This document shows positions 8,564 to 62,653 of a stretch of 64,000 nt of DNA, piece after piece. Origin of the DNA: a bacterium (GTDB lineage: Bacteria > Patescibacteriota > Andersenbacteria > UBA10190); NCBI GenBank assembly GCA_030698495.1, contig JAUYKA010000033.1, positions 7,840 to 71,839 of the forward strand. The letters are read 5' to 3'. The stretch's first letter is position 1; each line of letters begins with the position of its first letter. A program made the position numbers and the translations under genes. Below the pieces are notes generated by a model. That model saw only the letters and a list, made by a program, of their open reading frames with translations. It made no database searches and was not told the DNA's origin.

Positions 8564-8692
8564 GTCAACCTTTATATTACGACATTCTAAATGCTACCAC
8601 ATTATATACAACACCAATAAAGGTCAACGTGACGCAGTTCCTACCCGCCATTGCACCCGCCTTCTAGGAGATCCTCTATTAAAATATTCAGA

Positions 8693-11400: not shown

Positions 11401-11407
11401 GTCTTAT

Positions 11408-14733: not shown

Positions 14734-14815
14734 AATAATTCATCGAAACTGTATTGACGTTGGACTTACACAAAAAACAGTTTGCACGTAAACATAGCCA
14801 ATGATTCAATATATG

Positions 14816-15913: not shown

Positions 15914-16087
15914 ATAAACAAGTTTTTAAAAGAACAGCAAGTAAGTGTACAACTATTTTTTACTAATGCAATCAGTAGAACCAACAATATGTCAATTTGC
16001 ATTGGCATACATAGTCATTCTGTTTCCTACCTGCAAACCTAACGATGTGACTAGCCATGCCATCTTAATTTGGTTTGTTATAGATCG

Positions 16088-44016: not shown

Positions 44017-46578
44017 CTATTGCAGAAGTGCTTTGCTGACAATCATCTCTTTCAGCTTGGCTTGACTGTCCGCAATGAGGCGCTTTTTGGCAGTAACAAT
44101 TTCCTTCGGCGCCTTGCCTTTCATTTGCGTCAGGGATTCAGACTGGCGTTTTACAAATTGTTCCAGTTTAGTTGTTTCTTGGAGCAGTTTTTGGCGCGCT
44201 TGACGGATAACGTCGTCAGTTAGTTCGTCAGAGGCGATGGCGATGGTTTCTCCACCGGCAAGAGGCAGTTTGGTCATGTTTTCCCGCGCCTTTTTAAGCA
44301 GGGACACTTTTGCCAGTGATGATAGAATCTCGGGCATGATGGCGTCAGAAACATAGAGATCAATGGTAACACTGGGTGAGATACCAAACAGCGCTCGGGC
44401 GCTGCGCACGGCCGCGACTATATTTTGAAAACGGGTTATTTTTTTGTCCGCCTTTTGGTCCGGTTTGGTTTTGGCTTCAGGCCAAGGAGAAGTAATAAGC
44501 ATGTCTTTGTTGCCAAACTGCTGCCAGAGAACTTCGGTGATGTGCGGCACGAAGGGATGGAGCAGAGAAAGAATTTTGGTGAAAACAGACCGGGCGTTGG
44601 CCGTTGATCCTTTTATTTTAAGAACTTCCACGTACCAGTCGGCGTAATCTTTCCAGATAAAGTCGTAAATCAGGCGGGCGGCTTCGCCGAAGCGATACTG
44701 ATCGATAAGTTCTCCGGTCTGTTTGATAACGGCGTCACAGCGACGGTTAATCCATTGGTCAAAGATGGTGGCTTCGTCGCGAGAAGGTAAGTTTTGTAAA
44801 AAACGCGCCAGATTCCAGATTTTGTTGGCAAAGTTGCGCGCGGAGACGATAGCGTTCTCATCGAACTTAATGGCCTGGTTGTCGTAACTCATCTGATACA
44901 TGAGACCGAAACGGGTGGCATCAGAGCCGTATTTGTTAATTAATTTCAGAGGGTCAACGCCGGTGCCTAAGCTCTTGCTCATGCGCCGTCCGTTTTTGTC
45001 CAGAACGGTGGGGTGGATGAATACATCCTTAAAAGGAATACGCTGTTCGATTTGGGGTCGTTGATATTCCTCCCCTTTTAACAGCTCCAGGCCGGAGAAA
45101 ATCATGCGCGCCACCCACAGATATAAAATGTCGCGGGCGGTAACCAAAACAGAAGTAGGGTAGAATCGATGCAAATCGTCAGCGGCGTCCGGCCAACCTA
45201 GTGTAGCAAATGGCCACAGGGCGGCGGAAAACCAGGTATCAAGAACATCAGGATCTTGTTCATAGTCCCCCGCCGGCTTATCTTCCGCCACAATAAAGTT
45301 ACCTTCTTCATGATCGGTGCCGTGGGTGTCTTTTTTCCACCAAACCGGCAAACGATGTCCCAGCCAGATTTGACGATTAATATTCCAGTCACGGATATTA
45401 TGCATCCAATCCAGAAAATGTTTTTTCCAGCGCGGTCCGTAAAAGCGGATGAGGTCGTCTTCGACGACGGCGATCGTTTCGTCTTTTAGTTTCTGCATAT
45501 TCAGAAACCACTGACGGGATATTTGCGGTTCGATTAAGCCTTTACCGCGGTCGTTGCGAGCGACATTGTGGACGTAATTGGCGTTTACATGCACCAAAAG
45601 ACCTTTTTTCGCCAGTTTGGCGACAATTTTAGGCCGAGCTTCTTCGATGTCCATGCCGGCAAATTCAGCGGCAATAGGCATTAGTTTGCCGTTGAAGTCG
45701 ATAATTTGTTCCCGGTCCAGGTTATGCCGTTCGGCAATATCAAAATCAGTCGCATCGTGCCAGGGCGTGATAGTCATAACGCCGGTACCGAAGGAGGGGT
45801 CGATTGATTCATCTTTTATAACGGTGGCGTTGACGGGTCCGTTTATCCATTCGCAAGTGAATGTATCGCCGTGTTTGTATTGAGCATAGCGTTTATCGTC
45901 CGGGTGCATGACGACGTATTTGTCGCCGAATTTTGTTTCCGGACGAGCAGTGCTTATTTGGAAATGACCATATTGAAAGGTGTAATAAGGAGCGGTTTCT
46001 TCGTGCCAATCTATTTCTATGTCAGAAACGGTGGTTTGGGATTTGGGATCCCAATTAACCAGGCGCCGGCCGCGATAAATTAATCCTTTGGCGTAATAAT
46101 GGATGAAAGCTTTATTAACGGCTTGAACATATTTTGTGTCCATAGTGAAGCGCTCGCGGCTCCAATCGCAGGAGGCACCGAGACGTTTCATTTGATTAAT
46201 AATGGCTTTGCCGGTTTTGTCATACCACTCATCGGCGCGTTTCATAAATTCTTCCCGGCCAATGTCGTAGCGGGTTTTGCCTTCTTGGTGCAGTTGCTCT
46301 TCCAGCACTTTGTTGGTGGCAATAGCGGCATGGTCCGTACCGGGTAACCAAAGCGCGGGGCGGCCCAGCATGCGGTTATAGCGCATAAGAATGTCCATAA
46401 TGGTGTCCTGCAGGGCGTGCCCCATATGGAGCGTGCCGGTGATGTTGGGCGGCGGAAGCATGATTACATAGGGATTATTCCCGTTTTTTGGCGGCGTGAA
46501 GGCGCCGGATTCCTCCCATTTCCGGTATACTTCTGCTTCATACTCGGCGGGATTGTATTGTTTGGGTAGAGATAGCAT
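44017..46578 (-). CDS. valS: Valyl-tRNA synthetase.
   Basis: HIGH (PPNITGTLHMGHAL), KMSKS (RMSKSLGTG), 853 aa. Confidence 0.9.
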   Translation of the reverse strand: MLSLPKQYNPAEYEAEVYRKWEESGAFTPPKNGNNPYVIMLPPPNITGTLHMGHALQDTIMDILMRYNRMLGRPALWLPGTDHAAIATNKVLEEQLHQEGKTRYDIGREEFMKRADEWYDKTGKAIINQMKRLGASCDWSRERFTMDTKYVQAVNKAFIHYYAKGLIYRGRRLVNWDPKSQTTVSDIEIDWHEETAPYYTFQYGHFQISTARPETKFGDKYVVMHPDDKRYAQYKHGDTFTCEWINGPVNATVIKDESIDPSFGTGVMTITPWHDATDFDIAERHNLDREQIIDFNGKLMPIAAEFAGMDIEEARPKIVAKLAKKGLLVHVNANYVHNVARNDRGKGLIEPQISRQWFLNMQKLKDETIAVVEDDLIRFYGPRWKKHFLDWMHNIRDWNINRQIWLGHRLPVWWKKDTHGTDHEEGNFIVAEDKPAGDYEQDPDVLDTWFSAALWPFATLGWPDAADDLHRFYPTSVLVTARDILYLWVARMIFSGLELLKGEEYQRPQIEQRIPFKDVFIHPTVLDKNGRRMSKSLGTGVDPLKLINKYGSDATRFGLMYQMSYDNQAIKFDENAIVSARNFANKIWNLARFLQNLPSRDEATIFDQWINRRCDAVIKQTGELIDQYRFGEAARLIYDFIWKDYADWYVEVLKIKGSTANARSVFTKILSLLHPFVPHITEVLWQQFGNKDMLITSPWPEAKTKPDQKADKKITRFQNIVAAVRSARALFGISPSVTIDLYVSDAIMPEILSSLAKVSLLKKARENMTKLPLAGGETIAIASDELTDDVIRQARQKLLQETTKLEQFVKRQSESLTQMKGKAPKEIVTAKKRLIADSQAKLKEMIVSKALLQ

Positions 46579-46902: not shown

Positions 46903-47352
46903 GTGATAAAAGTTATGTCTTACGTGCTTACTGTCGGCTCGCTTCACTTTTTGCCCGGTGAGGCTTTGCGCGTACAAGAAGAATGCTCCTGTGAGGAGGC
47001 ACGACAAGGGTGTTTGCCTAGTTTTGTTTTTAGCCTGGAAGGACAAATAAGGTTTCGGACAGCTCTGCGGCACTTGGCTGTTTGTGAGAAAAGCCAGTGC
47101 CGGAAGCTGCGGCGTTATGTATTGGGCGGTATGCGGGACAAGTTGAGTTGGTTAATGGACGAGGAGTGTTTATTGGGGTGTGTGTTAGTTCAGCCGTCTT
47201 TGTACGGCGCCAAGCGGGTTATTCTGCAAAATAAGGATTTTGTTTCCGTCGCTCATCATTTAGCCAAGTGTCCCAAGGAAAGCTGCGCGCAGCTGCGCCG
47301 GGCACTGCTTTTGACAGTCAGAGACGAAGTGCGGGTGACGACGATAGAGTAA
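46903..47352 (+). CDS. Cys-rich hypothetical protein with an internal duplication.
   Basis: Two repeats of HLAxCxKxxCxxLRR. The 3' end overlaps the tsaD 3' end. Confidence 0.35.
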   Translation: MIKVMSYVLTVGSLHFLPGEALRVQEECSCEEARQGCLPSFVFSLEGQIRFRTALRHLAVCEKSQCRKLRRYVLGGMRDKLSWLMDEECLLGCVLVQPSLYGAKRVILQNKDFVSVAHHLAKCPKESCAQLRRALLLTVRDEVRVTTIE

Positions 47353-48556
47353 AATCTTCAATGCTTATACGAGCGGTTGCGTCTATTGCACGCCAAGTGG
47401 CGGTGCGTTTTTTGGTATAGGCATAACAAGCAACTTGGCCGATCATAATGGCATTGTCGCCGCATAGTTCTGTCGGGGCAATATGGAGGGGTGTTTGGTG
47501 TTCATCCGCCATACTTTGCATCTGACAACGCAAGATTTTATTGGCAGCCACTCCGCCGGCTAAAAGAAGCGTGCGGGGTTGGAATTGGTCAATAGCCTGT
47601 TTTGTTTTACCAATGAGTACATCAATAACTGTTTGCTGAAAACCGGCGGCGATGTCAGTTTTTACCGCTTGGGATAAGGACTCTTTTTTCTCCAGATCGC
47701 GAACTTTGTAGAGCACTTCGGTTTTAAGCCCGGAAAAACTGAAATCCAGATCACCAGAGTTGAGCATGGGGCGGGTGAATTTAAAGATGTTCGGATCGCC
47801 TGTTTTGGCCAGTTCGCTTATAGCCGGACCGCCCGGATAAGGCAGCCCGAGCAAACGCGCTACCTTGTCAAAAGCTTCTCCCGCAGCGTCGTCTCTCGTT
47901 GAACCCAAAACTTGGTATTGCAGGTGGTCTTTAACTAAAACCAATAAGGTGTGCCCCCCGGAAACGATGAGCGCAAGAGCGGGAAAGGGTTTGAAATTTG
48001 GGTTTTGGGTTTTGTTTGGGATTTGGGATTTGGGATTTGGGATTTTCGAGGCATGCGAGAGCAATGCCGAGTAGATGTGTCCTTCAATATGATGAACGGG
48101 AACAAGCAGCTTGCCCCACGCGTAGGCTAGTGTACGGGCGGCGTTAACACCAATAACGAGGGCGGGCATGAGCCCGGGGCCGACGGTGACGGCGATGGCG
48201 TCTATGCCAATTTTTGACCTTTGCCTGCCCCGCGCCGTGCCGGCCATAGCTCGGAGGGAGCGACGGCTGGTAGCCTTCCTCGGACCCTGGGCTCGCAAGT
48301 TCAGGGTGGCGAAGTGGGGACATTTGACCTTTGACTTACGAATAACATCAAAAATCATCGGGGAGATAATAGAAGCATGTTCTCTGGCGGCTACTTCGGG
48401 CACTACACCGCCGGTAAGGGTATGAATATCAACTTGCGAGGACACGGCGGAGGCCAGCACTTCCGGGGGTTTACCGGCCTGTTGTTGCACGACGGCAACG
48501 CCCGTTTCGTCGCAGGATGTTTCGATGGCTAAAATAGTGATTGGTTCTTTTGGCAT
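47318..48556 (-). CDS. tsaD: tRNA N6-adenosine threonylcarbamoyltransferase TsaD (Kae1/YgjD family) with two in-frame insertions.
   Basis: ILAIETSCDETGVAVV, HIEGH, LIVSGGHT and GGVAANKILR motifs. 412 aa against about 340 typical. Confidence 0.8.
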   Translation of the reverse strand: MPKEPITILAIETSCDETGVAVVQQQAGKPPEVLASAVSSQVDIHTLTGGVVPEVAAREHASIISPMIFDVIRKSKVKCPHFATLNLRAQGPRKATSRRSLRAMAGTARGRQRSKIGIDAIAVTVGPGLMPALVIGVNAARTLAYAWGKLLVPVHHIEGHIYSALLSHASKIPNPKSQIPNKTQNPNFKPFPALALIVSGGHTLLVLVKDHLQYQVLGSTRDDAAGEAFDKVARLLGLPYPGGPAISELAKTGDPNIFKFTRPMLNSGDLDFSFSGLKTEVLYKVRDLEKKESLSQAVKTDIAAGFQQTVIDVLIGKTKQAIDQFQPRTLLLAGGVAANKILRCQMQSMADEHQTPLHIAPTELCGDNAIMIGQVACYAYTKKRTATWRAIDATARISIEDFTLSSSPALRL

Positions 48557-48700: not shown

Positions 48701-48772
48701 GGCTCCATCGTCTAACGGCTAGGACGGTGCCCTTTCAAGGCGCAAATAGGGGTTCGATTCCCCTTGGAGCTA
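48701..48772 (+). tRNA. tRNA-Glu (anticodon TTC).
   Basis: Manual fold: anticodon loop CTTTCAA, T-arm GGGGT-TCGATTC-CCCCT, 3-bp D-stem, G1-U72 wobble. Confidence 0.65.
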
Positions 48773-48832
48773 CTAATCAAAACTTTATAATACTTGCATA
48801 ACTTTATAAAGTTTGGTAAAATAAGCTTATCT

Positions 48833-49756
48833 ATGAACTACGTAGATAAGTTGGTAATATTGCAGAAAGTAACAGAGAAGACCCAGACCGAACTGGCGGA
48901 TTTTTTAGGTGTATCATTTCCCACGCTTAACAGCTGGTTGAACGGGAAAAGCATACCGCGCAATAAAGCGCAGGAAAGAATTGACTTGCTATATCAGGAA
49001 TATACCGGCGTAGATCGTGTTGATGAATCGTCGCTATCAGCAAAAAAGCAAAAAATTGCAGCTTTACAAAAAAAGTATCCGGATCCGCTTAACACAATAA
49101 TCAGACGCAAAGACCTATACGACACTTTCGTCCTGGAACTTACCTATCACACCAACAGCATTGAAGGCAGTACTCTTAACGAGCCGGAAGTAAAAGCAGT
49201 CATTTTCGATAATGCCGTTATTCCCGATAAAACCGTAATAGAACATCAGGAAGCAAAAAATCATCAGGCTGCCTTAGCTAGCCTGTTCAAACAGTTAAAT
49301 GACAATCGCGAAACCAGGATTTCTGAAGATGAAATCAAAAAAATGCACGCCATCTTGATGAACGGTATTTACCCCAATGCCGGACAATACCGCACGCATC
49401 CTGTCAGAATAGTCAGTTCCCGAGTCGTCACGGCTAATTATATAAAAATTGAGGAGCTGATGAGAAAGCACGTAACAGAGTTAAAGAAAAAACCCGCCGA
49501 TGTTTTTACTCACCTGGTCCAAACTCACGCGCACTTTGAACAAATCCATCCGTTTTCCGACGGCAATGGCCGCGTCGGCCGCTTGCTCCTGCATGCTCTT
49601 GCTGCGCGCTACAGCCTGCCTCCCGTCTTAATTAAACGCGAGAAGAAACAGGCATACTATACTTATCTTGAACGGGCTCAGATTAAAGATGAGTATATGT
49701 TTCTAGAATCATTCATCTGCGACGCAATTCTTGAGGCGTACAAACTGCTGAAGTAA
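48833..49756 (+). CDS. Fic-family protein with an N-terminal HTH.
   Basis: Fic motif HPFSDGNGRVGR. XRE-like HTH QTELADFLGVSFPTLNSWL. Confidence 0.8.
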   Translation: MNYVDKLVILQKVTEKTQTELADFLGVSFPTLNSWLNGKSIPRNKAQERIDLLYQEYTGVDRVDESSLSAKKQKIAALQKKYPDPLNTIIRRKDLYDTFVLELTYHTNSIEGSTLNEPEVKAVIFDNAVIPDKTVIEHQEAKNHQAALASLFKQLNDNRETRISEDEIKKMHAILMNGIYPNAGQYRTHPVRIVSSRVVTANYIKIEELMRKHVTELKKKPADVFTHLVQTHAHFEQIHPFSDGNGRVGRLLLHALAARYSLPPVLIKREKKQAYYTYLERAQIKDEYMFLESFICDAILEAYKLLK

Positions 49757-50011
49757 ATTAAAGGCAATAAAAAGAGGAGTTTTTGATTTAGCTTCTCAAA
49801 GATAGTTCTAATCTCCTGTACTACGGGTCTGCCATGAAGTGTCCCCCAAAAGGTGGCCACACAAAGATGAAGCGACTGTTGTATGAAGGAAAACTACAGT
49901 AGCCACTTTTTGGTAGTGGTGGATTATGAAGACTACGTAGGCGATAAACACACGACAACATTTCATCTCGATTCTTGATACAACGACGGTTTCAGGATTG
50001 GTTGATTTGCG

Positions 50012-50059
50012 ATAAAAAAATCCCCGCCATAGACTCACTTAGTGTGAATCTTGCGGGGA
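50012..50059 (-). terminator. Terminator (ccccgc...gcgggg with T8 on the minus strand) after the fusion gene.
   Basis: One of three similar AAAAAATCCCCGC-type terminators, at 50012, 51654 and 53131. Confidence 0.65.
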
Positions 50060-50068
50060 GAACTGGCG

Positions 50069-51577
50069 CTAAGCAGCTGTAAGCGCTGCCAGCAACAAGG
50101 ATACAAGAGAGACATCAATGCCCCACTTGGCCAGCCAGTGTCGTTCTGGGTGCATTAGAAGCAACGCAAACGTGGCTTGCGTAACGCCTAAACTGTACCC
50201 GGCTGATTGAAGTGCTTGCACCGGGATCATGGCCAGAGGAACAACTACCAAGGGGCACAGCCCGATCAGCACAAATACGCTCATCGCGTGTCCATATCTC
50301 ACAACAATTGTTTCCTTGTAACCACGATCATGTTCAACGTCTGCCATGTCCTTAACGATTTCTCGCATGAATACAATCAGTGTTAGCGCTACAAAAAGTA
50401 GCAACGGTGCCATCGACAATTTCATTTGATACACCGCCCCACACAGTACGGGAGCAGCAGAGCAAAGAGCAACGATAACAGCCTGTCCAATGTACCAACG
50501 CCGAACTGGGGGTAATGAGTAACAGATACCTGTGACCCACACCAATACAACGAACAACGCTAGCCAGACTTTTGAGAGGGCGAGAGAAACCAGTAGTAAT
50601 ATGAACGTGAACACACCAAAGGCCAGGCAGAGTTGCATCACACTCCATGTGTGGGTAATGGCCACAGCACCCGGTTTCCACGTGTCGTGCTGCCTATCCA
50701 TAATGTCGTTGAACAACATTATGCAGGCTGCAACACAAGAAAAAGCGCTTGCAGTCACAAAAGCCAGAGCTGGTACGCTTCCGGACAACTTGAAACCCGC
50801 AATCACAACCGCAAAAGCGTACAGCGCCGTTAACAAACGAGGCGCTTTCACAAACTGACCTAAGGTAAGTACAGTCCCCTGCAATTTGTTACACGTATGT
50901 TGGCACCACCAACCAATGAGACTGTAAATTGGCGCGCGAACAACAAGGTCTCGGAAGAACTTACTGTTTATGAACTCCTGCACTTCTTTTACATATTGCT
51001 CATGGTCGGCGGTAAGAAAACAGTTTTTCTCACCACGTTGCCGATCCCTAGACAGATCAAGCAGGTCGTCCACCATTTGCAGTTTGCGACCGAATAAGGT
51101 GAGTTGGTCATCTGGATATTCGGCAAGCCAAACGCTGCCTATGACGATGCGGTAGAACTTAAAGGCAATAACGCCTCGCTCAAGTCCATCTTTTGACAGG
51201 TTGCCACTCAGATCGGTCGCGAAGAGGCTATACGCCTGTTCACGTGCTTCCGCACTTTCTACATAGCGATTAAGGAGAGTAGCAAAGAGCGACTGTTTCG
51301 CGTCTTTAGCGTGACACCAGTCTGTTTCGTAATCATAAATTGCCGAGAGAAAGGCGGCGACCATAGCCAAACGCAACTGACTTGCAGGCTTGCCAACGTC
51401 CGCAAACCCCAACAGACAACTGTAGAGGTTCACAGACTTAACCCACAAACGCAGACGATCTAGCGCCTTTATGGTTTTGAGAGACCACAAGACGGACAGA
51501 CAAAAGCAGCACATCCGGATATGTTGGAACATGTGATTACCCTTTGAATTGGGAAGTAACAATCGTTTAAGCCGCAA
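50069..51577 (-). CDS. Fusion protein: N-terminal squalene/phytoene-synthase-like domain plus C-terminal UbiA-family prenyltransferase domain.
   Basis: N-terminal DYETD and DLLDLSRDRQRGEKNCFL (DxxxDxxxGRxY-like) Asp-rich motifs. C-terminal NDIMDRQHD and KDMADVEHD UbiA motifs, with multiple TM helices. Confidence 0.6.
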   Translation of the reverse strand: MRLKRLLLPNSKGNHMFQHIRMCCFCLSVLWSLKTIKALDRLRLWVKSVNLYSCLLGFADVGKPASQLRLAMVAAFLSAIYDYETDWCHAKDAKQSLFATLLNRYVESAEAREQAYSLFATDLSGNLSKDGLERGVIAFKFYRIVIGSVWLAEYPDDQLTLFGRKLQMVDDLLDLSRDRQRGEKNCFLTADHEQYVKEVQEFINSKFFRDLVVRAPIYSLIGWWCQHTCNKLQGTVLTLGQFVKAPRLLTALYAFAVVIAGFKLSGSVPALAFVTASAFSCVAACIMLFNDIMDRQHDTWKPGAVAITHTWSVMQLCLAFGVFTFILLLVSLALSKVWLALFVVLVWVTGICYSLPPVRRWYIGQAVIVALCSAAPVLCGAVYQMKLSMAPLLLFVALTLIVFMREIVKDMADVEHDRGYKETIVVRYGHAMSVFVLIGLCPLVVVPLAMIPVQALQSAGYSLGVTQATFALLLMHPERHWLAKWGIDVSLVSLLLAALTAA

Positions 51578-51653
51578 TGCTTATGTTAGGATAGTTGTTC
51601 GCTTATGACTAGAAGCGCTGAAATCTTACGCGGTCCGCAGAAATAACTGTCTT

Positions 51654-51702
51654 AAATAAAAAATCCCCGCAGAGACTCACAAGTTGTGAATTTCTACGGG
51701 GT
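51654..51702 (-). terminator. Terminator after the 51734..52711 gene.
   Basis: ccccgc...cgggg stem with an A-run on the plus strand (T-run on the minus strand). Confidence 0.6.
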
Positions 51703-51733
51703 TTGTGATCGATGGAGCACGAGTTTACTCGAG

Positions 51734-52711
51734 CTACATGACCGAGACTTTTTCGTCTGACTTGAATGCGTCGCGCAATTCCGGCTGTTCATTCCACAGC
51801 TTCACGACCGTGTTGGTGAGATTGCGAAGCTGAGGCAGTGTGCCTCCCATTCCGAGCACATACATACTCTTTGAGTCAGGACGCAACTGGAAAGAGATCC
51901 AGCTACTAGCGTCTTGGAGCATCACGCGCTCATATCCGCACATTTCGACGCACAGGACTTTGACTGGACCGAACTGTCCAGACGCGCCACGATATTCACC
52001 CTTAACTCGGATGTCCATCATGCCGTTGAAGTAGACCTGCTCCTGAAAACGTTGGCATAGCTCGGCGAGACGACCGTCGATAGAGAGCAGGTCAGTATTC
52101 CCGTCGAGCGCACCATGCATCAGGATGTCGCTGCTGAGAAAGAGGTTGTCGTAAACACTGGACTCCTCCTCTAACTTGTAAAAACCGACATCAGGCTTCC
52201 CGTAAACCGTCACGCAGACAGAGCGGTCACAGAACTCACCGAAAACGTTGTGACTGTCCCCTGAGCTCTTGTGATAAGCCTCGACCGTAACCCAAACTAG
52301 ACACTTGACCTGATCGTGCATGGCGCCCGAGAGAGAATCGCCATCTTCTTGTGCCCAAAGAGCACAGTGAGCGTAACGTGGCTTATATCCACGTTGTTGC
52401 TTGGTCGGCCACTCGACCGACTTGGCAATAGTATCATCTTCGTTGATTGCGAAGAGGTACTCGCCTTGGCGCATTACTTGGTCCTTGCGCGGGCCTTTGG
52501 TAAAGCCGACCCAAGAGGAATCGTTGGCAAGACCGACGTTATCGGCGAGGCGGTACATCAGGTCTCCGTCTGCCTTTTGCACTTTGATCGTGAGGTCGTT
52601 GATGGTGGCACCACCCTTGCCGTCCAAAGGTTCTAGTTTCAGTGCGAGAAGCTTTCCTAGGCAAGGAAACTGCTTTAGTAGCTTCTGATTCTTTCTGGCG
52701 TTAGGTCTCAT
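51734..52711 (-). CDS. Hypothetical protein (325 aa).
   Basis: Long ORF with typical coding composition. No motif recognised. Confidence 0.45.
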   Translation of the reverse strand: MRPNARKNQKLLKQFPCLGKLLALKLEPLDGKGGATINDLTIKVQKADGDLMYRLADNVGLANDSSWVGFTKGPRKDQVMRQGEYLFAINEDDTIAKSVEWPTKQQRGYKPRYAHCALWAQEDGDSLSGAMHDQVKCLVWVTVEAYHKSSGDSHNVFGEFCDRSVCVTVYGKPDVGFYKLEEESSVYDNLFLSSDILMHGALDGNTDLLSIDGRLAELCQRFQEQVYFNGMMDIRVKGEYRGASGQFGPVKVLCVEMCGYERVMLQDASSWISFQLRPDSKSMYVLGMGGTLPQLRNLTNTVVKLWNEQPELRDAFKSDEKVSVM

Positions 52712-53130
52712 TCTAGGGCTCCCTACGTTCTGTAGATTGGCAAAGAACTAGCGTTCCGCTAGTTTTGTGAGCGGAATTGCTCACGGCTTATATCTAGCAT
52801 GTAAACATCAATATGTCAATGGTTAGCGATTCGAGGGGTTCGACACTGGTCGCAGCAATAGCCATATTGGGCTTTTGGGCTATATAGCAACTGCTGCCGC
52901 ACGTGTCTCTAGCTGCGCCATTCGGCGTATTGCGGCTGTTATAGGGTTCCACTGGTTTAACAGCTGGGCTACTCGAGAATCGGTTACCGAAGGTAACCTT
53001 ATATAATAATATCTTCCTTGAATTCGAGAACTCCGAGAGAAGCGCCAACCAGGCGCTGGTTCGAGGAGCTACCTTAATATAGGCCGTGTAAGCGACTATT
53101 AGCCGCTTCGTCAACGGATATATTTGATTC

Positions 53131-53163
53131 ATAAAAAATCCCCGCCGATCATAACGGCGAGAG
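53131..53163 (-). terminator. Terminator after the toxin gene.
   Basis: cccgccg-atcataa-cggcgag stem with a T-run on the minus strand. Confidence 0.55.
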
Positions 53164-53172
53164 GAAAATATA

Positions 53173-53346
53173 ATTATTGTAGCTACAGGCGTTTCGGGGC
53201 CACGTCGTAAACACGAGAGCAGTGTTGGATTATGAGAATTTTTACAGCATGACCGGCAATCCGAAAGATAACGCGATAATCTCCTACGTGTAGTTTCCGG
53301 TATCCTTTTAAAGACCGCCGGAGCGGTTTGCCATATAGATAAACGA
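53173..53346 (-). CDS. RelE/ParE-family toxin, short (57 aa, possibly N-terminally truncated).
   Basis: Own translation MFRVVYLYGKPLRRSLKGYRKLHVGDYRVIFRIAGHAVKILIIQHCSRVYDVAPKRL. The (K)LxVGDYRVIFRI...ILxIxHCxxVY signature is characteristic. Absent from the ORF track because under 60 aa. Confidence 0.55.
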
Positions 53347-53348
53347 CA

Positions 53349-53545
53349 CGAAACATCACTACCAGGCTTTATCGTGGGAAAGATAGCGGGCGTTATTAGT
53401 ATCCCGCTTGCGGGCAATGGCATTCCACGCCTGGTCCTCTTCCAGCTCAAGGGCAATTTCAAGCAGACGAGTTGCTTGCGTGGCTTGGGGTACCCTATCG
53501 CGACGGGCCAGCTTATCTAAGGCGATGCTGACGTCGGGGGGGGCA
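53349..53545 (-). CDS. Ribbon-helix-helix antitoxin-like ORF directly upstream of the toxin. The start is unclear and a G8 homopolymer lies at its 5' end.
   Basis: Translation ...PPDVSIALDKLARRDRVPQATQATRLLEIALELEEDQAWNAIARKRD. A 4-bp gap separates it from the toxin start. No in-frame ATG; a TTG start would come into frame with a 9-G tract. Confidence 0.4.
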
Positions 53546-53641
53546 AACTTATGTTCAAACGTTTTTTGGATGTAGGTATGTTATACGTGTATCACTTGTG
53601 TCAAGGCGTGAATCGGCATAAAAAAACAAAGCCGGCTAGTT

Positions 53642-54223
53642 TTACCTAGACCGGCTTATCGGCAGATATCCTGCCAGCGTGGCATGCAGTGCCGCGGTAA
53701 GGGTGGACGGTTCGGTGATTTGGCCAGTGCGTACAAGATCCCAGAACTCTTGAGGTTCGGCTTCCAGCACCTCGATGGTTTCATCGGCATCCAGGCGGCG
53801 TTTGCCGGTGAAGGAACAGTCTAGCGCCAGAAATACCCGGAAGAAGCTTGGCGACTTTCTCGTGCTGATATGGTGCCGGTGAAGTTTTAACATACGACCG
53901 GCACGGAAACCGGTTTCTTCCTCAAGCTCTCGAGTAGCTGTTAACTCAAGGTTTTCTCCCTCTTCCGCCGTGCCAGCCGAAAACTCGATCACTATGTCAT
54001 GGACACCTTGTTTGTACTGACGCACAAGTATGAGTTTCCCTTCGGTGGTGATAGCACACACGATAGCGAAATTTCTCCCGCCGAAGAGCGAAAAATCATG
54101 TTCTTGGCCGTCCGGGTCTCGAAAGACTTGTTTCTGAAGATAGGCACCAAAGAGTTTCGCGAGTTGTTCAGGAACACCTACCTTACTCCAGGGCTTAATA
54201 TTGGCGGCAATAATTGTTTTCAA
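53642..54223 (-). CDS. NUDIX hydrolase.
   Basis: GTAEEGENLELTATRELEEETGF. Confidence 0.8.
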   Translation of the reverse strand: MKTIIAANIKPWSKVGVPEQLAKLFGAYLQKQVFRDPDGQEHDFSLFGGRNFAIVCAITTEGKLILVRQYKQGVHDIVIEFSAGTAEEGENLELTATRELEEETGFRAGRMLKLHRHHISTRKSPSFFRVFLALDCSFTGKRRLDADETIEVLEAEPQEFWDLVRTGQITEPSTLTAALHATLAGYLPISRSR

Positions 54224-55858: not shown

Positions 55859-57025
55859 TTATGTCAAAAATTCCAGAAAATTGTTTTGGTGGATGGTTTG
55901 GGGGGCGGTGCGGTAGAGATTATAAAAGGCGCGGGAGGGTTTGGCATCGAGTTCCTCGAAATGCGTATCGAAGGCATGAAGCGTATTCCCCTGCTTGACG
56001 ACTAGATCTACGGTACTGCCGGCGCGCGATTGCCAGAAGTATAAGTCTTCCTGGCGATTGTAGGTGCGGCTTTGTTTAAAAATTTCCGCCATAACCCAAT
56101 TTTGCCACAACGCCTTAATGTCACTGCGATTGGTCGAGACAACCCATTCGCGCTGGAGGGCGTTTTTAACACCGTTATCCCAGAAGTAATATTTGCGGCC
56201 TTTGTTTATTTCTTTGTCGCCATTGGTGGAATAGGCTGGCACGCTAAAGATGACATAAATGCCTGCCAATAAATCCAGGTAGCGATTAACGGTCTGGCGG
56301 CTTAGTTTAAGCCGCGCGGCCAGTTGATTGATTGATATCGTTTGGCCGATGGCTTGGGCTAATTCCACCAAGAGGCGGCGGACATCTTCAGGTGAACGTA
56401 CCAGCGAAGCAGTAAAGATGTCTTTGAGCAGATAGTCGCTGATTAGGTTGGTTAAGTATTGCCGGGGATCTTCGGCCAAGTAGCTTTCCGGATAGCTGCC
56501 GAAGATAAGGCGGTTGAGCAGAAGCGCGTTAATTTGGTCGCCGAAATCTTGGTGCATACTGGCGGGTTCGAGGGAGTCGCTGTACCATTTTTGGTCGGCC
56601 AGAATTTCAGAGAATAAGAGCGGCGTCAGCCATAGCTTTTCGTTGCGGCCGGTAAGGTCGGCGGCGGCAGTTTCCAGCAAGGTATGACTGGATGACCCCA
56701 GGAGAATTATTTTGGGCTCGACTTTAGCATCGTACCAGCCTTTGCAAATGCGGCCGATGTCTGATTCGCGCTGGGCTTCGTCTATTATGAGGAGATGAGC
56801 AGCGCCCAGGCTGCGCATGGCGTCGGGCGGAGAAAGTTTGGCGGCGGCTTTGACGCGGGCGCGGTCAATATCAATGTCCATATTGAGCAGGATCCCTTGG
56901 CTATCAGAGATAATGTGCTCAATAAGAGTGGTTTTGCCGACCTGGCGGGCGCCGAGTAAAAAGAGGACTTTCTTGTTCTTGAGGGCAAGTTCGACTTGCG
57001 ACTGGATGATGCGATTAATATACAT
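55859..57025 (-). CDS. AAA-superfamily ATPase (DUF4143-type).
   Basis: Walker A LGARQVGKTT. The 388-aa architecture is typical of PF13173/PF13635 proteins. Confidence 0.6.
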   Translation of the reverse strand: MYINRIIQSQVELALKNKKVLFLLGARQVGKTTLIEHIISDSQGILLNMDIDIDRARVKAAAKLSPPDAMRSLGAAHLLIIDEAQRESDIGRICKGWYDAKVEPKIILLGSSSHTLLETAAADLTGRNEKLWLTPLLFSEILADQKWYSDSLEPASMHQDFGDQINALLLNRLIFGSYPESYLAEDPRQYLTNLISDYLLKDIFTASLVRSPEDVRRLLVELAQAIGQTISINQLAARLKLSRQTVNRYLDLLAGIYVIFSVPAYSTNGDKEINKGRKYYFWDNGVKNALQREWVVSTNRSDIKALWQNWVMAEIFKQSRTYNRQEDLYFWQSRAGSTVDLVVKQGNTLHAFDTHFEELDAKPSRAFYNLYRTAPQTIHQNNFLEFLT

Positions 57026-57135: not shown

Positions 57136-58170
57136 ATGTCCGGTAATAATTTTAGGGTTGAGATTGAACGGGGCGGCGTGCTTTTGTGGGTTAATCAAGA
57201 CGACCGATATGAAGCTGACGGTATTTTTAATCCGGCCGTGGCGGGTGATTATTTACTGTATCGTGCCGCCGGATCTGGTAATTATTCTCGGATAATGGCG
57301 GCGCGTTTGTCTTATGATAAGCGGCGGGGAGACGTGAACGCCGACCGTTTGCAGCGGATAATATTGGAACCCATGACGGCATATGAAAAAATGAGTGAGG
57401 AGAACGGAGGTGTGGAGGATCCGCGAGTGACCCGATTGGCTGACGGAAAATACGTAATGCTGTATGTTGGCTATGGGTATCAAAAAGAAACCGATGCTCA
57501 AGAATCAATGATAGCGGCAGCAATTTCAGAAAATGGATTAATATGGGAACGCTTGGGGCGGATTATGTTTGAGCCGCTGCACTGGCAGGGACACATGATT
57601 GATTTGAATAGAGTACCCAACAAAGACGCGGTGCTATTCAGTGAAAAAATTGGCGGCCGTTATGCTCTTTACCACCGCCCGATGTTTTCCGCGGAGAAGG
57701 CGAAAGTAACCGGTGTGCCAAGACGCGCCATCTGGTATGCAGAGGCAGAGCAATTAACCGGACCCTGGAGTAACCATAGGATGGTGGCCATACCGAAGTA
57801 TGACTGGGAGATTAGCGGCATTGGCAGCGGTGTTCCGCCGATTCGCATGGGTAACACTTGGCTGAATATTTATCACGGGTTCATCTATCAAAGAAAACAT
57901 AAGCACTACTGTGCCGGCGCCTTTGTTACTTCAGCTGATAAACCATACCAGATCACCTGGAGGCAGGCAGAGCCAGTTCTTGAACCAATTGTGTATGACG
58001 AGAAGAAGCACAGAAGCAAACACATTGTGTTTCCTACAGCTGTTTGGTCCGGCGCGGGAGAGAGACCGGTGATTATATGGGGCTGCGAAGATAGCAGTAT
58101 TATGTGGGGCTGGTTGAATCTGCGATCGGCACAGGCAGGACCGTCTGCATCTTTGCGGCTGCCTGCTTGA
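57136..58170 (+). CDS. GH130-like glycosidase/phosphorylase (DUF377 beta-propeller).
   Basis: GVEDPRV motif and overall length. Confidence 0.55.
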   Translation: MSGNNFRVEIERGGVLLWVNQDDRYEADGIFNPAVAGDYLLYRAAGSGNYSRIMAARLSYDKRRGDVNADRLQRIILEPMTAYEKMSEENGGVEDPRVTRLADGKYVMLYVGYGYQKETDAQESMIAAAISENGLIWERLGRIMFEPLHWQGHMIDLNRVPNKDAVLFSEKIGGRYALYHRPMFSAEKAKVTGVPRRAIWYAEAEQLTGPWSNHRMVAIPKYDWEISGIGSGVPPIRMGNTWLNIYHGFIYQRKHKHYCAGAFVTSADKPYQITWRQAEPVLEPIVYDEKKHRSKHIVFPTAVWSGAGERPVIIWGCEDSSIMWGWLNLRSAQAGPSASLRLPA

Positions 58171-59200
58171 TAGCGGCAGGTGCGGTGCGCATAAGCAGGT
58201 CAGCGTGCAAATAAGCCAGCATTGACTCCGCCCCGCAATTTGGGTTGATTTGAGTATGATTTAAACCGTCCCGGCACCAGCCTTTCTCGGGATTAACCAG
58301 AGGTTGTTTAAGAGAATTGTGACCAAAAAACCATAAATATGGCGCGGCAACCGTGGCTGGTGAGACGCGATCCGGAAATTCAGCGTGATATTCCAGTAAG
58401 AATTCAAACATGGTTCCGGCTTCGATGGGTTGTTGGTCATACCGCGCCGCCGGCCGGCCGGACTGATACCAGCCTTTATTACCGATGGGATGAAACATGT
58501 CGCCGGTAATAGTTGCTTCACACAAGAAAGACGCGCTGGCGTGGAGAGCGACAAGGTAGTGCGAGCTACGGTTAGACGATCGCACATAACTCAACAAAGC
58601 GTGGGGCAGGAGGGCGTTGGCGTAAGTCAGGCGGTTTTCAAACCAGGGCCAGTCGGTGCGGCGATTAGATGCAAACAACTTAAGAAGCCGGCCGGCCAGT
58701 TCGTTTTGCGCAGACGTTAGAGACGCGGGTATTTTTTTCACCGGCGGCAAAGACAGGGCGATAATGCTTTCCGCTATAGCGCGTTGATGGTGAAGCTGTT
58801 GTAAATGCGGCGTCAGCGCTATCAACCAGTCGCGGGCTTGCCGGCGGCGGACGGATGTTTTGGTTTTAAGTAGTACGGTGGCCAGACTGCGCGCCGTATG
58901 AGCCAGGGTATCTTCAGTGCCGATTTGGTCGAGCCACTTACCATCCGCCTGACGAAAATTACGGAAAACGCCGTTTGGCCGGCGCGCTTGCGTCAAAAAT
59001 TGCCAGCAGGAGTTTAGGAGGGTGTTAGCTTCAGCTGAAGGCTGGTACTGTTCCAGTGATACTAAAAACCGTATCGCCCGGCTATTGTCGTCGGTGCAGT
59101 AGCCTTCCGCTAGAAGCGGTTTTATGCCTTGGGCGTGTTGATACAGTCCGTAGGGACCCATCATGGTGCTAAAATGTCGCAATGAGATTGTGGCTTGCAT
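58100..59200 (-). CDS. Hypothetical protein, possibly (alpha/alpha)6-barrel glycosidase-like.
   Basis: Long ORF convergent with, and overlapping, the GH130 gene. Weak resemblance only. Confidence 0.3.
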   Translation of the reverse strand: MQATISLRHFSTMMGPYGLYQHAQGIKPLLAEGYCTDDNSRAIRFLVSLEQYQPSAEANTLLNSCWQFLTQARRPNGVFRNFRQADGKWLDQIGTEDTLAHTARSLATVLLKTKTSVRRRQARDWLIALTPHLQQLHHQRAIAESIIALSLPPVKKIPASLTSAQNELAGRLLKLFASNRRTDWPWFENRLTYANALLPHALLSYVRSSNRSSHYLVALHASASFLCEATITGDMFHPIGNKGWYQSGRPAARYDQQPIEAGTMFEFLLEYHAEFPDRVSPATVAAPYLWFFGHNSLKQPLVNPEKGWCRDGLNHTQINPNCGAESMLAYLHADLLMRTAPAAIKQAAAKMQTVLPVPIADSTSPT

Positions 59201-59318
59201 GAATGTGTATTGTTGTAGTATTATTTCGGATATCTGTCAAGAAAGTTTTTTTCTTGGGATTAAATTAACTCACGGTTCCGATTGGGGGTAGGATACAAGT
59301 TCTTGGAGAATAGTCTAT

Positions 59319-60422
59319 ATGAACATTGTTCTTATTGTAGCAGAGCACGGATATAGTTTCGTTAATCAGGCTGAAGCCTTAATGAAGGGTTTAAAGCAGA
59401 TTGGCGTTAATTCTAGCCTGGTAAAAGTCAGCGGCGGCCATGTTGATGCCAGTCAGCTTCAGGAAGCCCGGCCTGATATTGTAATAAGCGTCGGCGATTG
59501 GCATGATTATGCTCCTTTAGTAGAAGCACCAATGGTAGCAGGATTTGTGGTAGTGCCTTGGGTAGTTGCCGATGAAGCAAGTGATTTATGGATCGAACAG
59601 TACAATAAATTGCCTCTTATTTTAGTACCCAGCCAGCACGTTAAAGAACAATTAACCAGCAATAAAGTTACGGATAAACTTATCGAGGTTTTGCCCGAGG
59701 CGGTGGACGATGATTTATGGAAGCCATGGGAGGAAAAGCGCCTGGTATCTTTTTTGGAATTGCTTTCCGTGCAAAATGAGATGATAAGGGCTGATTTGCC
59801 CAAGCGGTTTGATTTAATGCAGGCACGGCAAGAAGGCGTGCCGATTATTTTTACGACCGGCGGTTACGCTACGGCTAAAGGCGCACAAGAGGTTATGCGC
59901 GCGCTGGCTACATTGGAAGAAGATTTGCCGTGGATTTATGTTATTAAGACGTGGCCGGCAATAGAAAGTTTGAAGTATACCCAAGAGGAGTTAACTCTGG
60001 CGGAAGAGCTTGGTCTGGCTGACCGGATGCGATATATTATCGGAGAATTTTCCCGGGATTTCATGGTGGGATTGATGAACGCATGTGATATGTACGCTTC
60101 GCCATCGCGGCACGAAGGATTTGGCTTGCCCTTAGTGGAGGCTCAAATGTGCGGCAAGCCGGTAGTAACGGTAGCCGGTACGGCTACTCAAGAGACGGTG
60201 CGCGACGGAGTGACCGGATTCCTGGCGACGAGAGATACCAGTGCAAAAGATATGCGCGCCGATGTGTCCAGTTTGGCGGGCCACCTGCGAGAACTTTTGA
60301 CTAATACCGACCGACGCGCGGAACTGGGGCGCCAGGCATTGAAACTGGCGCGCGCTACCTATCGGCCGGCGGCCATTACGCGACGTCTTTTGAATACGCT
60401 GGCTAAGCACAAACTGCCATGA
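59319..60422 (+). CDS. GT4 (group 1) glycosyltransferase.
   Basis: SPSRHEGFGLPLVEAQMCGKPVV motif. Confidence 0.7.
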   Translation: MNIVLIVAEHGYSFVNQAEALMKGLKQIGVNSSLVKVSGGHVDASQLQEARPDIVISVGDWHDYAPLVEAPMVAGFVVVPWVVADEASDLWIEQYNKLPLILVPSQHVKEQLTSNKVTDKLIEVLPEAVDDDLWKPWEEKRLVSFLELLSVQNEMIRADLPKRFDLMQARQEGVPIIFTTGGYATAKGAQEVMRALATLEEDLPWIYVIKTWPAIESLKYTQEELTLAEELGLADRMRYIIGEFSRDFMVGLMNACDMYASPSRHEGFGLPLVEAQMCGKPVVTVAGTATQETVRDGVTGFLATRDTSAKDMRADVSSLAGHLRELLTNTDRRAELGRQALKLARATYRPAAITRRLLNTLAKHKLP

Positions 60423-61660
60423 AAAATTCATACGCTGAAATACTGGAGTACCAGCAGGAACCATTAAATGTTATTTATATTGCTTCTTATATACCGCGCA
60501 AGTGCGGTATTGCTACTTATACCAAAGACTTAACGAACGCCATTAATTTGCTGAATTCGAGGTCAATGGCGGAAATTCTGGTGATGCATCGCGCCGATAG
60601 TAAGACCGATTATCCCTGGGAGGCCAAATATAAGGTTGATGATACTAACTTGGCTTCTTTTTTAGGAGCGGCAGACTATATCAACAAATCGCACGCCAAC
60701 CTGGTTTCGTTGCAGCATGAATTTGGCCTGTATGGCGGCAATGGCGGCGAATATATTGTACCTTTGGTTGAGTCTCTAAAAGTACCGCTGGTGACGACTT
60801 TTCACACGGTTGTGGCTGATCCGGACAGTAACTACGGCATGGTGCTGCGCCGGATTGCCGCAAGGTCGGAGGCTATTGTCGTAATGATGAATCAACCGGC
60901 TGACCGTCTGGTTAAATACTACGGCGTGCCGCGGAAAAAAATAGTAGTTATCCCCCATGGAGTACCCGATCTGCCTTTTAACAATTCAAGGGCCAGCAAG
61001 AGCAAGAGACGGCTGACCGACCGGTTGGTGTTGGGTAATATTAATCTTTTGTCGCCGGGAAAAGGGATTGAGTACGCGCTGGAAGCGGTGGCGGAAATAT
61101 CCCGACAGTATCCGGAAGTGCTTTATTTGGTTATCGGCCAGACACACCCCGATCTGCTAAAAGCGGAGGGAGAAAAATACCGAAATTATCTTAAAAGGCG
61201 AGTACGGGAATTGGATATTCGTAATAACGTGCGGTTTATTAATGAGTATTTGTCACTTAACGATCTCATAGACTGGCTGAAGACTATTGATATATACGTT
61301 ACACCGTATTTAGATCCGCAGCAGGTTACTTCCGGAGCTTTGGCATATGCCATTGGCGCCGGTAAAGCATGCGTGTCCACATCATATATATATGCCACTG
61401 AAGTTTTAGCCGACGGCCGCGGTGTGTTAGTGCCATTTCGTGATCCGGGCACGATTGCCAAAGCAGTGATTGGGTTACAGAAAAATAATACGCGCCGCAA
61501 AGATATGCAAAAGAAGGCTTATGAGTACGGTCGATTAATGACATGGCCAAACGTGGCCCAGAGCCATTTGCAGTTATTCAGGAGTGTTTTGCACCGGCAT
61601 GCTTGTCAACAACCTGCTGATATACACGAAGATAATTTTGTGCCATCCGTGCAGCCGTAA
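60419..61660 (+). CDS. GT4 (group 1) glycosyltransferase.
   Basis: GT-B C-terminal domain features. ATGA overlap with the upstream GT. Confidence 0.6.
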   Translation: MKNSYAEILEYQQEPLNVIYIASYIPRKCGIATYTKDLTNAINLLNSRSMAEILVMHRADSKTDYPWEAKYKVDDTNLASFLGAADYINKSHANLVSLQHEFGLYGGNGGEYIVPLVESLKVPLVTTFHTVVADPDSNYGMVLRRIAARSEAIVVMMNQPADRLVKYYGVPRKKIVVIPHGVPDLPFNNSRASKSKRRLTDRLVLGNINLLSPGKGIEYALEAVAEISRQYPEVLYLVIGQTHPDLLKAEGEKYRNYLKRRVRELDIRNNVRFINEYLSLNDLIDWLKTIDIYVTPYLDPQQVTSGALAYAIGAGKACVSTSYIYATEVLADGRGVLVPFRDPGTIAKAVIGLQKNNTRRKDMQKKAYEYGRLMTWPNVAQSHLQLFRSVLHRHACQQPADIHEDNFVPSVQP

Positions 61661-62630: not shown

Positions 62631-62653
62631 GGGTTACAAGTACGAAGTTAATT

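Follow-up and report, generated by a model that had tools for sequence, protein, structure and literature searches.

Between positions 49,757 and 53,641 of a 64,000-nucleotide (nt) window, the whole stretch of DNA that was analysed (contig JAUYKA010000033.1, from the metagenome-assembled genome of a patescibacterium of the Andersenbacteria), the minus strand carries a gene for a two-domain protein, a gene for a 325-amino-acid (aa) protein and the remnant of a toxin-antitoxin pair. The two-domain protein, referred to here as the fusion protein, consists of a soluble N-terminal half, which we call X, and a C-terminal half of the UbiA family of membrane prenyltransferases. What is new in it is the joining of a known membrane enzyme to an unnamed minimal domain of class-I isoprenoid-synthase type, and literature searches returned no description of this architecture or its motifs. 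The fusion gene and its terminator are laid out as follows.

50014-50059, minus strand: T1, terminator of the fusion gene, a hairpin followed by U7, with an exact copy of the 13-mer described below
50069-50866, minus strand: UbiA domain of the fusion, stop codon included (PF01040, 9 predicted helices)
50867-51532, minus strand: X domain of the fusion, the N-terminal ~222 aa, predicted to be soluble and to consist of helices only, in a class-I isoprenoid-synthase-like fold

Architecture of the fusion protein

The fusion open reading frame (ORF) at 50069-51577 and the 325-aa ORF at 51734-52711 lie where the initial annotation had placed them, and the motifs DYETD, NDxxDxxxD and DxxxD that it read in the first are present. 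This ORF encodes 502 aa if it starts at a TTG codon. The alignment of homologs points to the ATG at 51532, before which AAAGGG stands at a distance of 8 to 13 nt, as the likely start; the protein would then begin MFQHIR and comprise 487 aa, and the 502-aa TTG form would be too long. The start chosen by NCBI (454 aa) corresponds to residue 34 of the 487-aa form and removes the invariant W30 and K32, and the public annotation of the protein reads "UbiA family prenyltransferase" only. Residue numbers of X follow the 487-aa form throughout.

The same architecture was found in 18 full-length homologs with 34-46% identity (alignment A1), and all of those with a source name came from Patescibacteria. 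An exhaustive profile search found ~45 cluster representatives of 474-535 aa with the X-UbiA architecture and a continuous linker. The fusion is nevertheless rare and patchy: it was present in only 9 of 185,579 GTDB species representatives, among them Magasanikbacteria and Buchananbacteria; two of the nine are labelled as uncultured Gammaproteobacteria and one only as "bacterium", and the named lineages are otherwise Patescibacteria. In the AlphaFold model of the full-length protein (predicted local distance difference test score, pLDDT, 91.8; predicted TM-score, pTM, 0.82) confidence did not dip at the junction, where residues 210-240 had pLDDT values of 86-94, and the confidence of the whole model suggests that the two domains are fixed relative to each other. 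Split and broken forms do occur: one comparison locus (L023) carries X (230 aa) and UbiA (246 aa) as separate genes with an ATGA overlap, and in another (L022) the X/UbiA pair is disrupted or split, with X interrupted by what is either a pseudogene lesion or a sequencing error. Set against the 18 full-length homologs, the ~45 representatives with their continuous linker and the confident junction, the possibility that a frameshift or the assembly merged two neighbouring genes is so improbable that we set it aside, and the fusion called in the initial annotation stands; judged by alignment and model, the two-domain protein is a genuine fusion.

The C-terminal half scored 60.4 bits on PF01040 against a cutoff of 34.2 (E 2.1e-16, residues 260-475 in 502-aa numbering), which agrees with the UbiA assignment made initially. 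Both aspartate-rich motifs of the family are present (NDIMDRQHD and DMADVEHD), and the 18 homologs all have N275, D276, D283, D395 and D402, and nearly all have D398. The AlphaFold model places 9 helices between residues 233 and 485. A profile search of the PDB matched this half to digeranylgeranylglyceryl phosphate (DGGGP) synthase 6m31 at E 2e-9, and Foldseek returned 7bpu/6m31 at about E 2e-5 (7bpu, E 1.8e-5) with a target-normalised TM-score of 0.65, and 4od4 with 0.70; the half superposes on DGGGP synthase, ApUbiA and AfUbiA. Identity is ~20%, and the fusion differs by its extra, catalytic-looking N-terminal domain. The best NCBIfam model was NF009523; the DGGGP synthase equivalog, NF009521, scored 34.9 bits against a cutoff of 296. 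The partner genes for geranylgeranylglyceryl phosphate (GGGP) synthase and glycerol-1-phosphate (G1P) dehydrogenase were not found between 41 and 64 kb of the window. Profile matches and modelled fold identify the C-terminal half as a true UbiA intramembrane prenyltransferase, closest to the archaeal DGGGP synthase.

The X domain and its relatives

The X half matched no Pfam and no NCBIfam model. Predicted alone with AlphaFold 2, it gave an all-helical model (pLDDT 94.2, pTM 0.90) in which long helices carry two clusters of acidic residues at their C-terminal ends. When this model was compared with the PDB by Foldseek, the top matches all had the class-I isoprenoid-synthase fold (diterpene synthase, MoeN5, and farnesyl and geranylgeranyl diphosphate synthases, FPPS/GGPPS), led by the pimarane-type class-I diterpene synthase 7e4o (E 0.013, TMq 0.53); none reached E <= 0.001. 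Its best structural neighbours are thus MoeN5, the moenomycin prenyl-coupling enzyme, and bacterial class-I terpene synthases such as 7e4o (TMq ~0.5), which are small all-helical enzymes that ionise prenyl diphosphates, yet X is only 11-16% identical to them and has no sequence-family link with them.

All of 76 diverse X sequences have K32, D67, R119 (in DGLERG), G148, Q152, D155, D156, D159, D163 and N170, and 75 of them have D71; as read from the alignment, this is an active-site-like pattern. The first aspartate-rich motif is Y-D67-Y-E-T-D71-W (YDYETDW), that is, DxxxD; the N-half motif DDLLDLSRDRQRG is present in the window protein. The second motif, F-G148-R-K-L-Q152-M-V-D155-D156-L-L-D159, is invariant in the family and has the form GxxFQxxDDxxD of the second aspartate-rich motif (SARM) of trans-polyprenyl diphosphate synthases; in alignments with many solved synthases it falls on their SARM, and it matches their [F/L]G..LQ..DD..D letter for letter. 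These synthases (PF00348: FPPS, GGPPS, hexaprenyl and octaprenyl diphosphate synthases) share the fold class of X and were its only recurrent sequence matches: when the X profile was compared with PDB sequences, ~55 of the top 60 matches were trans-polyprenyl diphosphate synthases at the SARM (best E 0.0033). Furthermore, 13 of 55 stand-alone X members matched PF00348 below threshold (best E 0.0044, cutoff 27 bits); the window protein had no match, and the gathering cutoff was reached neither by it nor by its 55 relatives. X departs from these enzymes in length (~220 aa versus ~300), in its first motif (DYETD versus DDx2-4D) and in the distance between the motifs. Model and motifs together place X, as a shortened member, in the superfamily of the class-I isoprenoid-synthase fold, and we regard this assignment, together with the two-domain architecture, as very probable.

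X is not confined to the fusion. An exhaustive profile search collected 191 clusters at E <= 1e-3, a family without a Pfam or NCBIfam name and with three architectures: the X-UbiA fusion, stand-alone proteins of 204-268 aa, and proteins of 486-594 aa whose other half is a genuine PF00494 (squalene/phytoene synthase, SQS/PSY) domain. Fusions of the third kind (P0187, P0203, P0210, P0225, P0234, P0257 and others) occur in either order, and the SQS/PSY half of the P0187 type is true but divergent, weakly resembling HpnC/HpnD. Because profile-profile alignment (hhalign) of X with those PF00494 halves gave a probability of only 9.6%, over 45 columns, X is a module distinct from SQS/PSY.

Four loci with a stand-alone X were inspected. 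In two of them, L012 (4355-7615, a metagenome-assembled genome of Acidobacteriota) and L015 (4492-7687), a cassette contains UbiA, a 322-aa membrane protein, a type-1 isopentenyl diphosphate (IPP) isomerase and X; the isomerases exceed the NF002995 cutoff of 127 bits with scores of 176-180. In the third (L014, 5270-7744), overlapping genes encode a homolog of the membrane protein, UbiA and X. These three loci lie outside the CPR (Patescibacteria), and their UbiA genes have the same best NCBIfam model as the window UbiA half. The membrane proteins of the cassettes are 296-322 aa long, and the L012 and L015 copies are 93% identical though their flanks differ. The L015 cassette lies beside TniQ/TniB/Mu-transposase (Tn7-like) genes and the near-identical L012 cassette has other neighbours, contexts which suggest mobility, possibly as Tn7-like cargo.

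Three independently terminated units

The remaining features of the stretch and its immediate flanks are the following.

48701-48773, plus strand: tRNA-Glu
48794-49756, plus strand: helix-turn-helix (HTH)-Fic protein with Fic and HTH_3 domains, convergent with the fusion gene and just 3' of tRNA-Glu
51657-51701, minus strand: T2, terminator of the 325-aa gene, aligned with T1 over ~45 nt
51734-52711, minus strand: the 325-aa gene, encoding a cytoplasmic protein of a conserved Patescibacteria family (homolog search)
52712-52790, minus strand: structured 5' leader of the 325-aa gene (conservation and covariation, 6 loci)
52791-52819, minus strand: sigma-70-type promoter of the 325-aa gene, TTGACA-17 nt-TAGATA, read from the sequence
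52820-53133, no strand assigned: hairpin-rich non-coding spacer of ~310 bp without a credible ORF
53134-53161, minus strand: T3, terminator after the ParE remnant (terminator scan)
53183-53359, minus strand: truncated RelE/ParE-type toxin remnant, 58 aa (PF05016, C-terminal half only)
53359-53580, minus strand: antitoxin-like open frame of 73 codons without a start codon (translation)
53619-53657: terminator of the NUDIX gene, of a type unlike T1-T3
53642-54223, minus strand: NUDIX hydrolase of the ADP-ribose-pyrophosphatase/NudE type (PF00293, E 1.7e-13)

The initial annotation had reported three minus-strand terminators of one type that occur only here, and this was confirmed. The 13-mer AAAAAATCCCCGC has exactly three copies in 64 kb, at 50015, 51658 and 53133; with 0 to 2 mismatches allowed it matched the window 9 times against 4.65 expected, and the three exact copies are confined to the stretch. 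Read on the minus strand, each copy forms a GC-rich hairpin followed by a U tract 10 to 35 nt past a stop codon, as expected of an intrinsic terminator, with folding energies of -26.5 kcal/mol for T1 (z -4.8), -24.4 kcal/mol for T2 (z -5.8) and -14.5 kcal/mol for T3 (z -2.5). T1 and T2 are alike in loop and inner stem over ~45 nt and are therefore copies of one sequence, and T3 has only GCGGGGATTTTTTAT in common with them (the 3' arm and the U tract). Genomes with homologs of the 325-aa gene do not conserve T2 behind them, which makes the terminator family a local feature of this genome or patch. Since each gene has its own terminator, and that of the NUDIX gene is of another type, the 3.9 kb are three independently terminated units and form neither an operon nor a single functional unit. 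As had been noted, other isoprenoid genes are absent between 41 and 64 kb of the window.

The non-coding gap that the initial annotation gave as ~430 bp and hairpin-rich is likewise real: no credible ORF was found in 52712-53130 (~420 bp), and its fold was better than that of all 100 of 100 shuffles (z -3.3), with a contribution from the spacer at 52820-53133. The spacer separates T3 from the 325-aa gene's promoter and contains several long hairpins (e.g. 52852-52898); it had no similarity to any comparison locus. Rfam matched nothing in the gap, the spacer or the terminators except for a meaningless 21-bit anti-hemB match on T1.

For the 325-aa protein, at least 158 full-length homologs were found, of which the 120 listed are 45-60% identical to it; they are spread over Parcubacteria-type lineages and all are hypothetical. 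It had no match in Pfam, the PDB, PHROG or PADLOC, and the fusion protein had none in PHROG or PADLOC. The neighbours of the 325-aa gene differ in every genome examined and it never stands beside the fusion in the other loci examined; it is unrelated cargo, not functionally tied to the fusion. The possibility that the window protein is the 322-aa membrane protein of the X cassettes was rejected (BLASTP E 0.67), and the likeness in length is coincidental.

Beside the start codon of the 325-aa gene, 75 to 80 nt are conserved as DNA though the homologous proteins are only ~50% identical. Each family member examined carries such a leader, and six of these leaders were aligned (window 52712-52819; L006 5945-6003; L008 5950-6003; L010 5946-6003; L030 3016-3072; L032 2949-3003). 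In the window the leader contains three elements, P0 (52767-52784), P1 (52748-52762; CUAGCG-GAA-CGCUAG) and P2 (52723-52735; CUAC-AGAAC-GUAG), with a conserved GUUCUUU between P1 and P2, and the 3' arm of P2 runs into the Shine-Dalgarno sequence GGGAG (52719-52723). P1 and P2 are 100% paired in the six loci, four pairs show compensatory changes, and the G-U wobbles fit the sense strand only. The covariation score was reached by 0 of 500 shuffles, and pairing was 94% compared to 20-46% in slid controls. A covariance model built for the leader found only these six in 353 kb, and Rfam had no match to it. In addition, a TTGACA-17-TAnAnT promoter is present in at least three of the six loci, the window aligning with L006 and L010. 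Two further candidates were discarded: a covariance-model match in L021 (E 0.15), where the downstream gene is unrelated, and a pseudoknot of GUUCU with the P2 loop, which is not conserved in L030 or L032 (79% paired). P0 (GTGAGC..GCTCAC) resembles the palindrome of a lac-operator half-site. From its covariation, the leader looks like a candidate new cis-regulatory RNA of Patescibacteria in which the P2 arm would cover part of the ribosome-binding site.

The pair at the edge had been taken for a RelE/ParD-like toxin-antitoxin system, of which a ParE-type toxin remnant stood up. The toxin ORF matched PF05016 at E 7.4e-6 over positions 53-89 of 89 only and is not full-length; its N-terminal half is missing, and MFRVVY is joined straight to the C-terminal beta-sheet part. 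The antitoxin-like frame contains no ATG, GTG or TTG start, its stop codon overlaps the start of the toxin, and it had no Pfam match, which leaves the ParD identity unverified. A C8 run at 53537-53544 within this frame could hide a frameshift. The pair is a degraded remnant. The best NCBIfam match of the adjoining NUDIX hydrolase was NudE, below cutoff, with no match to isopentenyl diphosphate isomerase (IDI); its equation with the IDI of the X cassettes was rejected (BLASTP E 7.6), the window protein being NudE-like. In L022 (4627-7463), a NUDIX gene (29% identical), an antitoxin-like ORF, a ParE/YafQ-type toxin, X and UbiA follow one another in the order seen in the window, without the 325-aa gene; we take this shared order as a lead, not a result.

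In the wider neighbourhood, the HTH-Fic protein (48794-49756) matched two PADLOC models, the defence candidate PDC-S04 (8e-41) and SoFic (1e-27), and an AAA_14/DUF4143 ATPase (55859-57025) matched PDC-S01 (5e-95); flanked by this Fic protein and this ATPase, the stretch lies therefore in a defence-type variable neighbourhood. Downstream of the patch, 57136-63607 holds two GH130 phosphorylase-like genes and three GT4 glycosyltransferases. On the other side, TsaD (47318-48556), whose closest relative in the metagenome collection is 46% identical, contains insertions of low complexity, one reading PNPKSQIPNKTQNPN... and another rich in Arg and Ser, which GTTTGGGATTTGGGAT-type repeats encode (47989-48043), and a copy of the GTTTGGGATTTGGGAT-type repeat is also found in the adjoining class-I tRNA synthetase gene (46034-46049). 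Farther away, a block of low GC content (0.33-0.38) at ~8000-16000 ends at ~15-16 kb, the point at which the cumulative GC skew stops falling and begins to rise. No dnaA was found near the skew switch at ~16 kb, where the genes encode histidyl-tRNA synthetase, a phosphoribosyltransferase-like protein, a radical S-adenosylmethionine protein, HAD, PfkB and a pyridoxal-phosphate-dependent decarboxylase; this may be a landmark of replication or else a further block of foreign DNA.

The initial annotation described the stretch as an island, and in its strongest form this would make the whole 3.9 kb one mobile element with cooperating genes and imported terminators in common. The patch adjoins tRNA-Glu, and its composition is odd: from 49 to 53 kb the GC and AT skews run the opposite way (GC skew -0.08 to +0.01 versus a mean of +0.17, standard deviation 0.07), and the coding-strand GC skews at third codon positions (GC3) of the Fic gene (-0.13), the fusion (+0.08), the 325-aa gene (-0.15) and the NUDIX gene (-0.11) depart from those of other minus-strand genes (-0.27 to -0.54) and of plus-strand genes (+0.20 to +0.27). 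Candidate defence genes flank the patch, which has a terminator family of its own, and the fusion is patchy across species and stands beside a transposase and an integrase in L002. As expected of a tRNA-associated island, the composition differs from that of the flanks in its skews, but the GC content is ordinary (0.43-0.52 versus a mean of 0.47). The stretch contains no integrase and no transposase, and an attachment (att) repeat of tRNA-Glu was not found, the 3' 20-mer of the tRNA being unique in the window even at 3 mismatches. Moreover, the 325-aa gene and the fusion were never found together elsewhere, L022 has the NUDIX, toxin-antitoxin and X/UbiA order without the 325-aa gene, and neither family occurs in viral contigs. 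A single cooperating island is therefore improbable; the odd composition and the adjacent tRNA speak for the initial description, but functional unity is not supported. We read the patch as a variable, recently rearranged or acquired set of unrelated units, not a coherent island, and a mobile origin of the patch is plausible.

Proposed function and alternatives

Our best explanation overall, to which we give an even chance, is that the fusion gene encodes a 487-aa bifunctional isoprenoid enzyme in which X would supply a prenyl group and the UbiA half would transfer it, with the surroundings as independent units. In this scheme X, which keeps two aspartate-rich motifs (YDYETDW and G..LQ..DD..D...D) of the kind that bind Mg2+ and diphosphate, would build an allylic prenyl diphosphate from IPP and dimethylallyl diphosphate (DMAPP) or a short primer, or would at least bind and ionise one. 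The UbiA active site, on the cytoplasmic side of the membrane, would receive the product directly from X, and the UbiA half would attach the prenyl chain to an acceptor to give a membrane-bound prenylated product. Because X is fused or adjacent to UbiA and SQS/PSY, which consume allylic prenyl diphosphates, and to IDI, a source of DMAPP, it is most simply a supplier; the specific mechanism of supply from X to UbiA seems to us slightly short of an even bet. Eukaryotic and fungal prenyltransferase-terpene synthase fusions, in which one polypeptide makes and uses a prenyl diphosphate, follow the same logic. Unlike those, the window fusion has an integral-membrane UbiA as its second module and a new minimal domain as its first.

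Several observations weigh against the supplier scheme. X passes no curated family threshold; its Foldseek matches all have E >= 0.013 with TMq ~0.5, and the top one is a terpene cyclase, not a chain-length synthase. Its first motif is DxxxD and not the DDx2-4D of trans-polyprenyl synthases. The two motifs of X are 88 residues apart, compared to ~125-160 residues in characterised class-I enzymes; elements of the IPP site may be absent from X, in which no IPP-site motif was recognised. The cassette evidence comes from only four stand-alone loci, and in one of them (L013) X lies among transposases with no UbiA nearby. Around the fusion itself, no neighbour was conserved in 10 loci except the NUDIX gene and toxin-antitoxin pair upstream in L022. 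The acceptor of the UbiA half is not readable from its sequence, since it falls far below every NCBIfam equivalog cutoff. Finally, most Parcubacteria are without the mevalonate pathway (PMC6107057), which puts the source of IPP and DMAPP in doubt.

The strongest alternative makes X a terpene synthase, a cyclase or some other non-elongating enzyme that ionises prenyl diphosphates and acts before or after the UbiA transfer; the prenyl group may, for example, be cyclised or rearranged by X. This fits the top match to 7e4o, weak as it is, the presence of hydropyrene and biformene synthases among the matches, and the many top ranks held by MoeN5, a non-elongating prenyl-coupling enzyme of this fold. 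The spacing D155-D156..D159...D163 is also compatible with the metal-binding consensus of terpene synthases, (N/D)Dxx(S/T/D)xxx(E/D), although the identities of the motifs differ. All sequence-level signal points instead to chain-elongating synthases, and the adjacency to IDI and the fusions to consumers of prenyl diphosphates suit a supplier better, so that we consider a terpene-synthase-like role unlikely.

X could also be a non-catalytic, substrate-binding or regulatory domain that tunes UbiA, like the small subunits of heteromeric prenyl synthases. Its sequence is ~80-100 aa shorter than known class-I enzymes, which would suit such a role, as would the failure to pass any family threshold; but six acidic residues (five invariant, D71 in 75 of 76) and an invariant K, R, Q and N are kept across phyla and architectures, which makes a non-catalytic X quite improbable.

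In the initial annotation the protein was read as a CrtEb-like carotenoid elongase with a head-to-head squalene/phytoene synthase as an extra N-terminal module, and this we regard as very improbable. The phytoene synthase consensus is QxxNxxRDxxxDxxxGRxY, with which Q152(0), D155(+3), D159(+7), D163(+11), G167(+15) and N170(+18) run parallel, and hhalign gave a weak local match at the second motif. Despite this similar spacing, X failed the PF00494 test (no match at E <= 0.1 for the window protein and none among 55 stand-alone members), the profile-profile comparison and the fold ranking, where squalene synthase appeared only at ranks 39 and 49 (TMq 0.34-0.37), and X is fused elsewhere to a separate, true SQS/PSY domain and is thus a different module. 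CrtEb lycopene elongase is a UbiA enzyme like the C-terminal half of the window protein, yet this half is closest to DGGGP synthase, and no carotenoid genes (crtI, crtB, crtY) lie nearby.

Returning to X as a supplier to UbiA, a broader proposal can be made, which we offer tentatively and consider somewhat less likely than not: X would be an unrecognised minimal (~200 aa) catalytic class-I family, a portable prenyl-diphosphate module that pairs with UbiA or SQS/PSY across phyla; the fusion would allow Parcubacteria-type Patescibacteria to make a membrane isoprenoid of their own, perhaps a prenyl lipid of the ether type, with one self-contained system; and, as a separate matter, the leader of the 325-aa gene would represent a new Patescibacteria-specific class of cis-regulatory RNA. 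The conserved leader offers an experimental handle on a gene found widely in Patescibacteria. If X is catalytic, it would extend the terpenoid-synthase fold by a new branch of unusually small size, of interest to enzymologists and genome miners. Patescibacteria are thought to depend on hosts for lipids and are poor in pathways; an enzyme that makes and transfers a prenyl group in one protein, if it proves true, would bear on how they build or modify their membranes.

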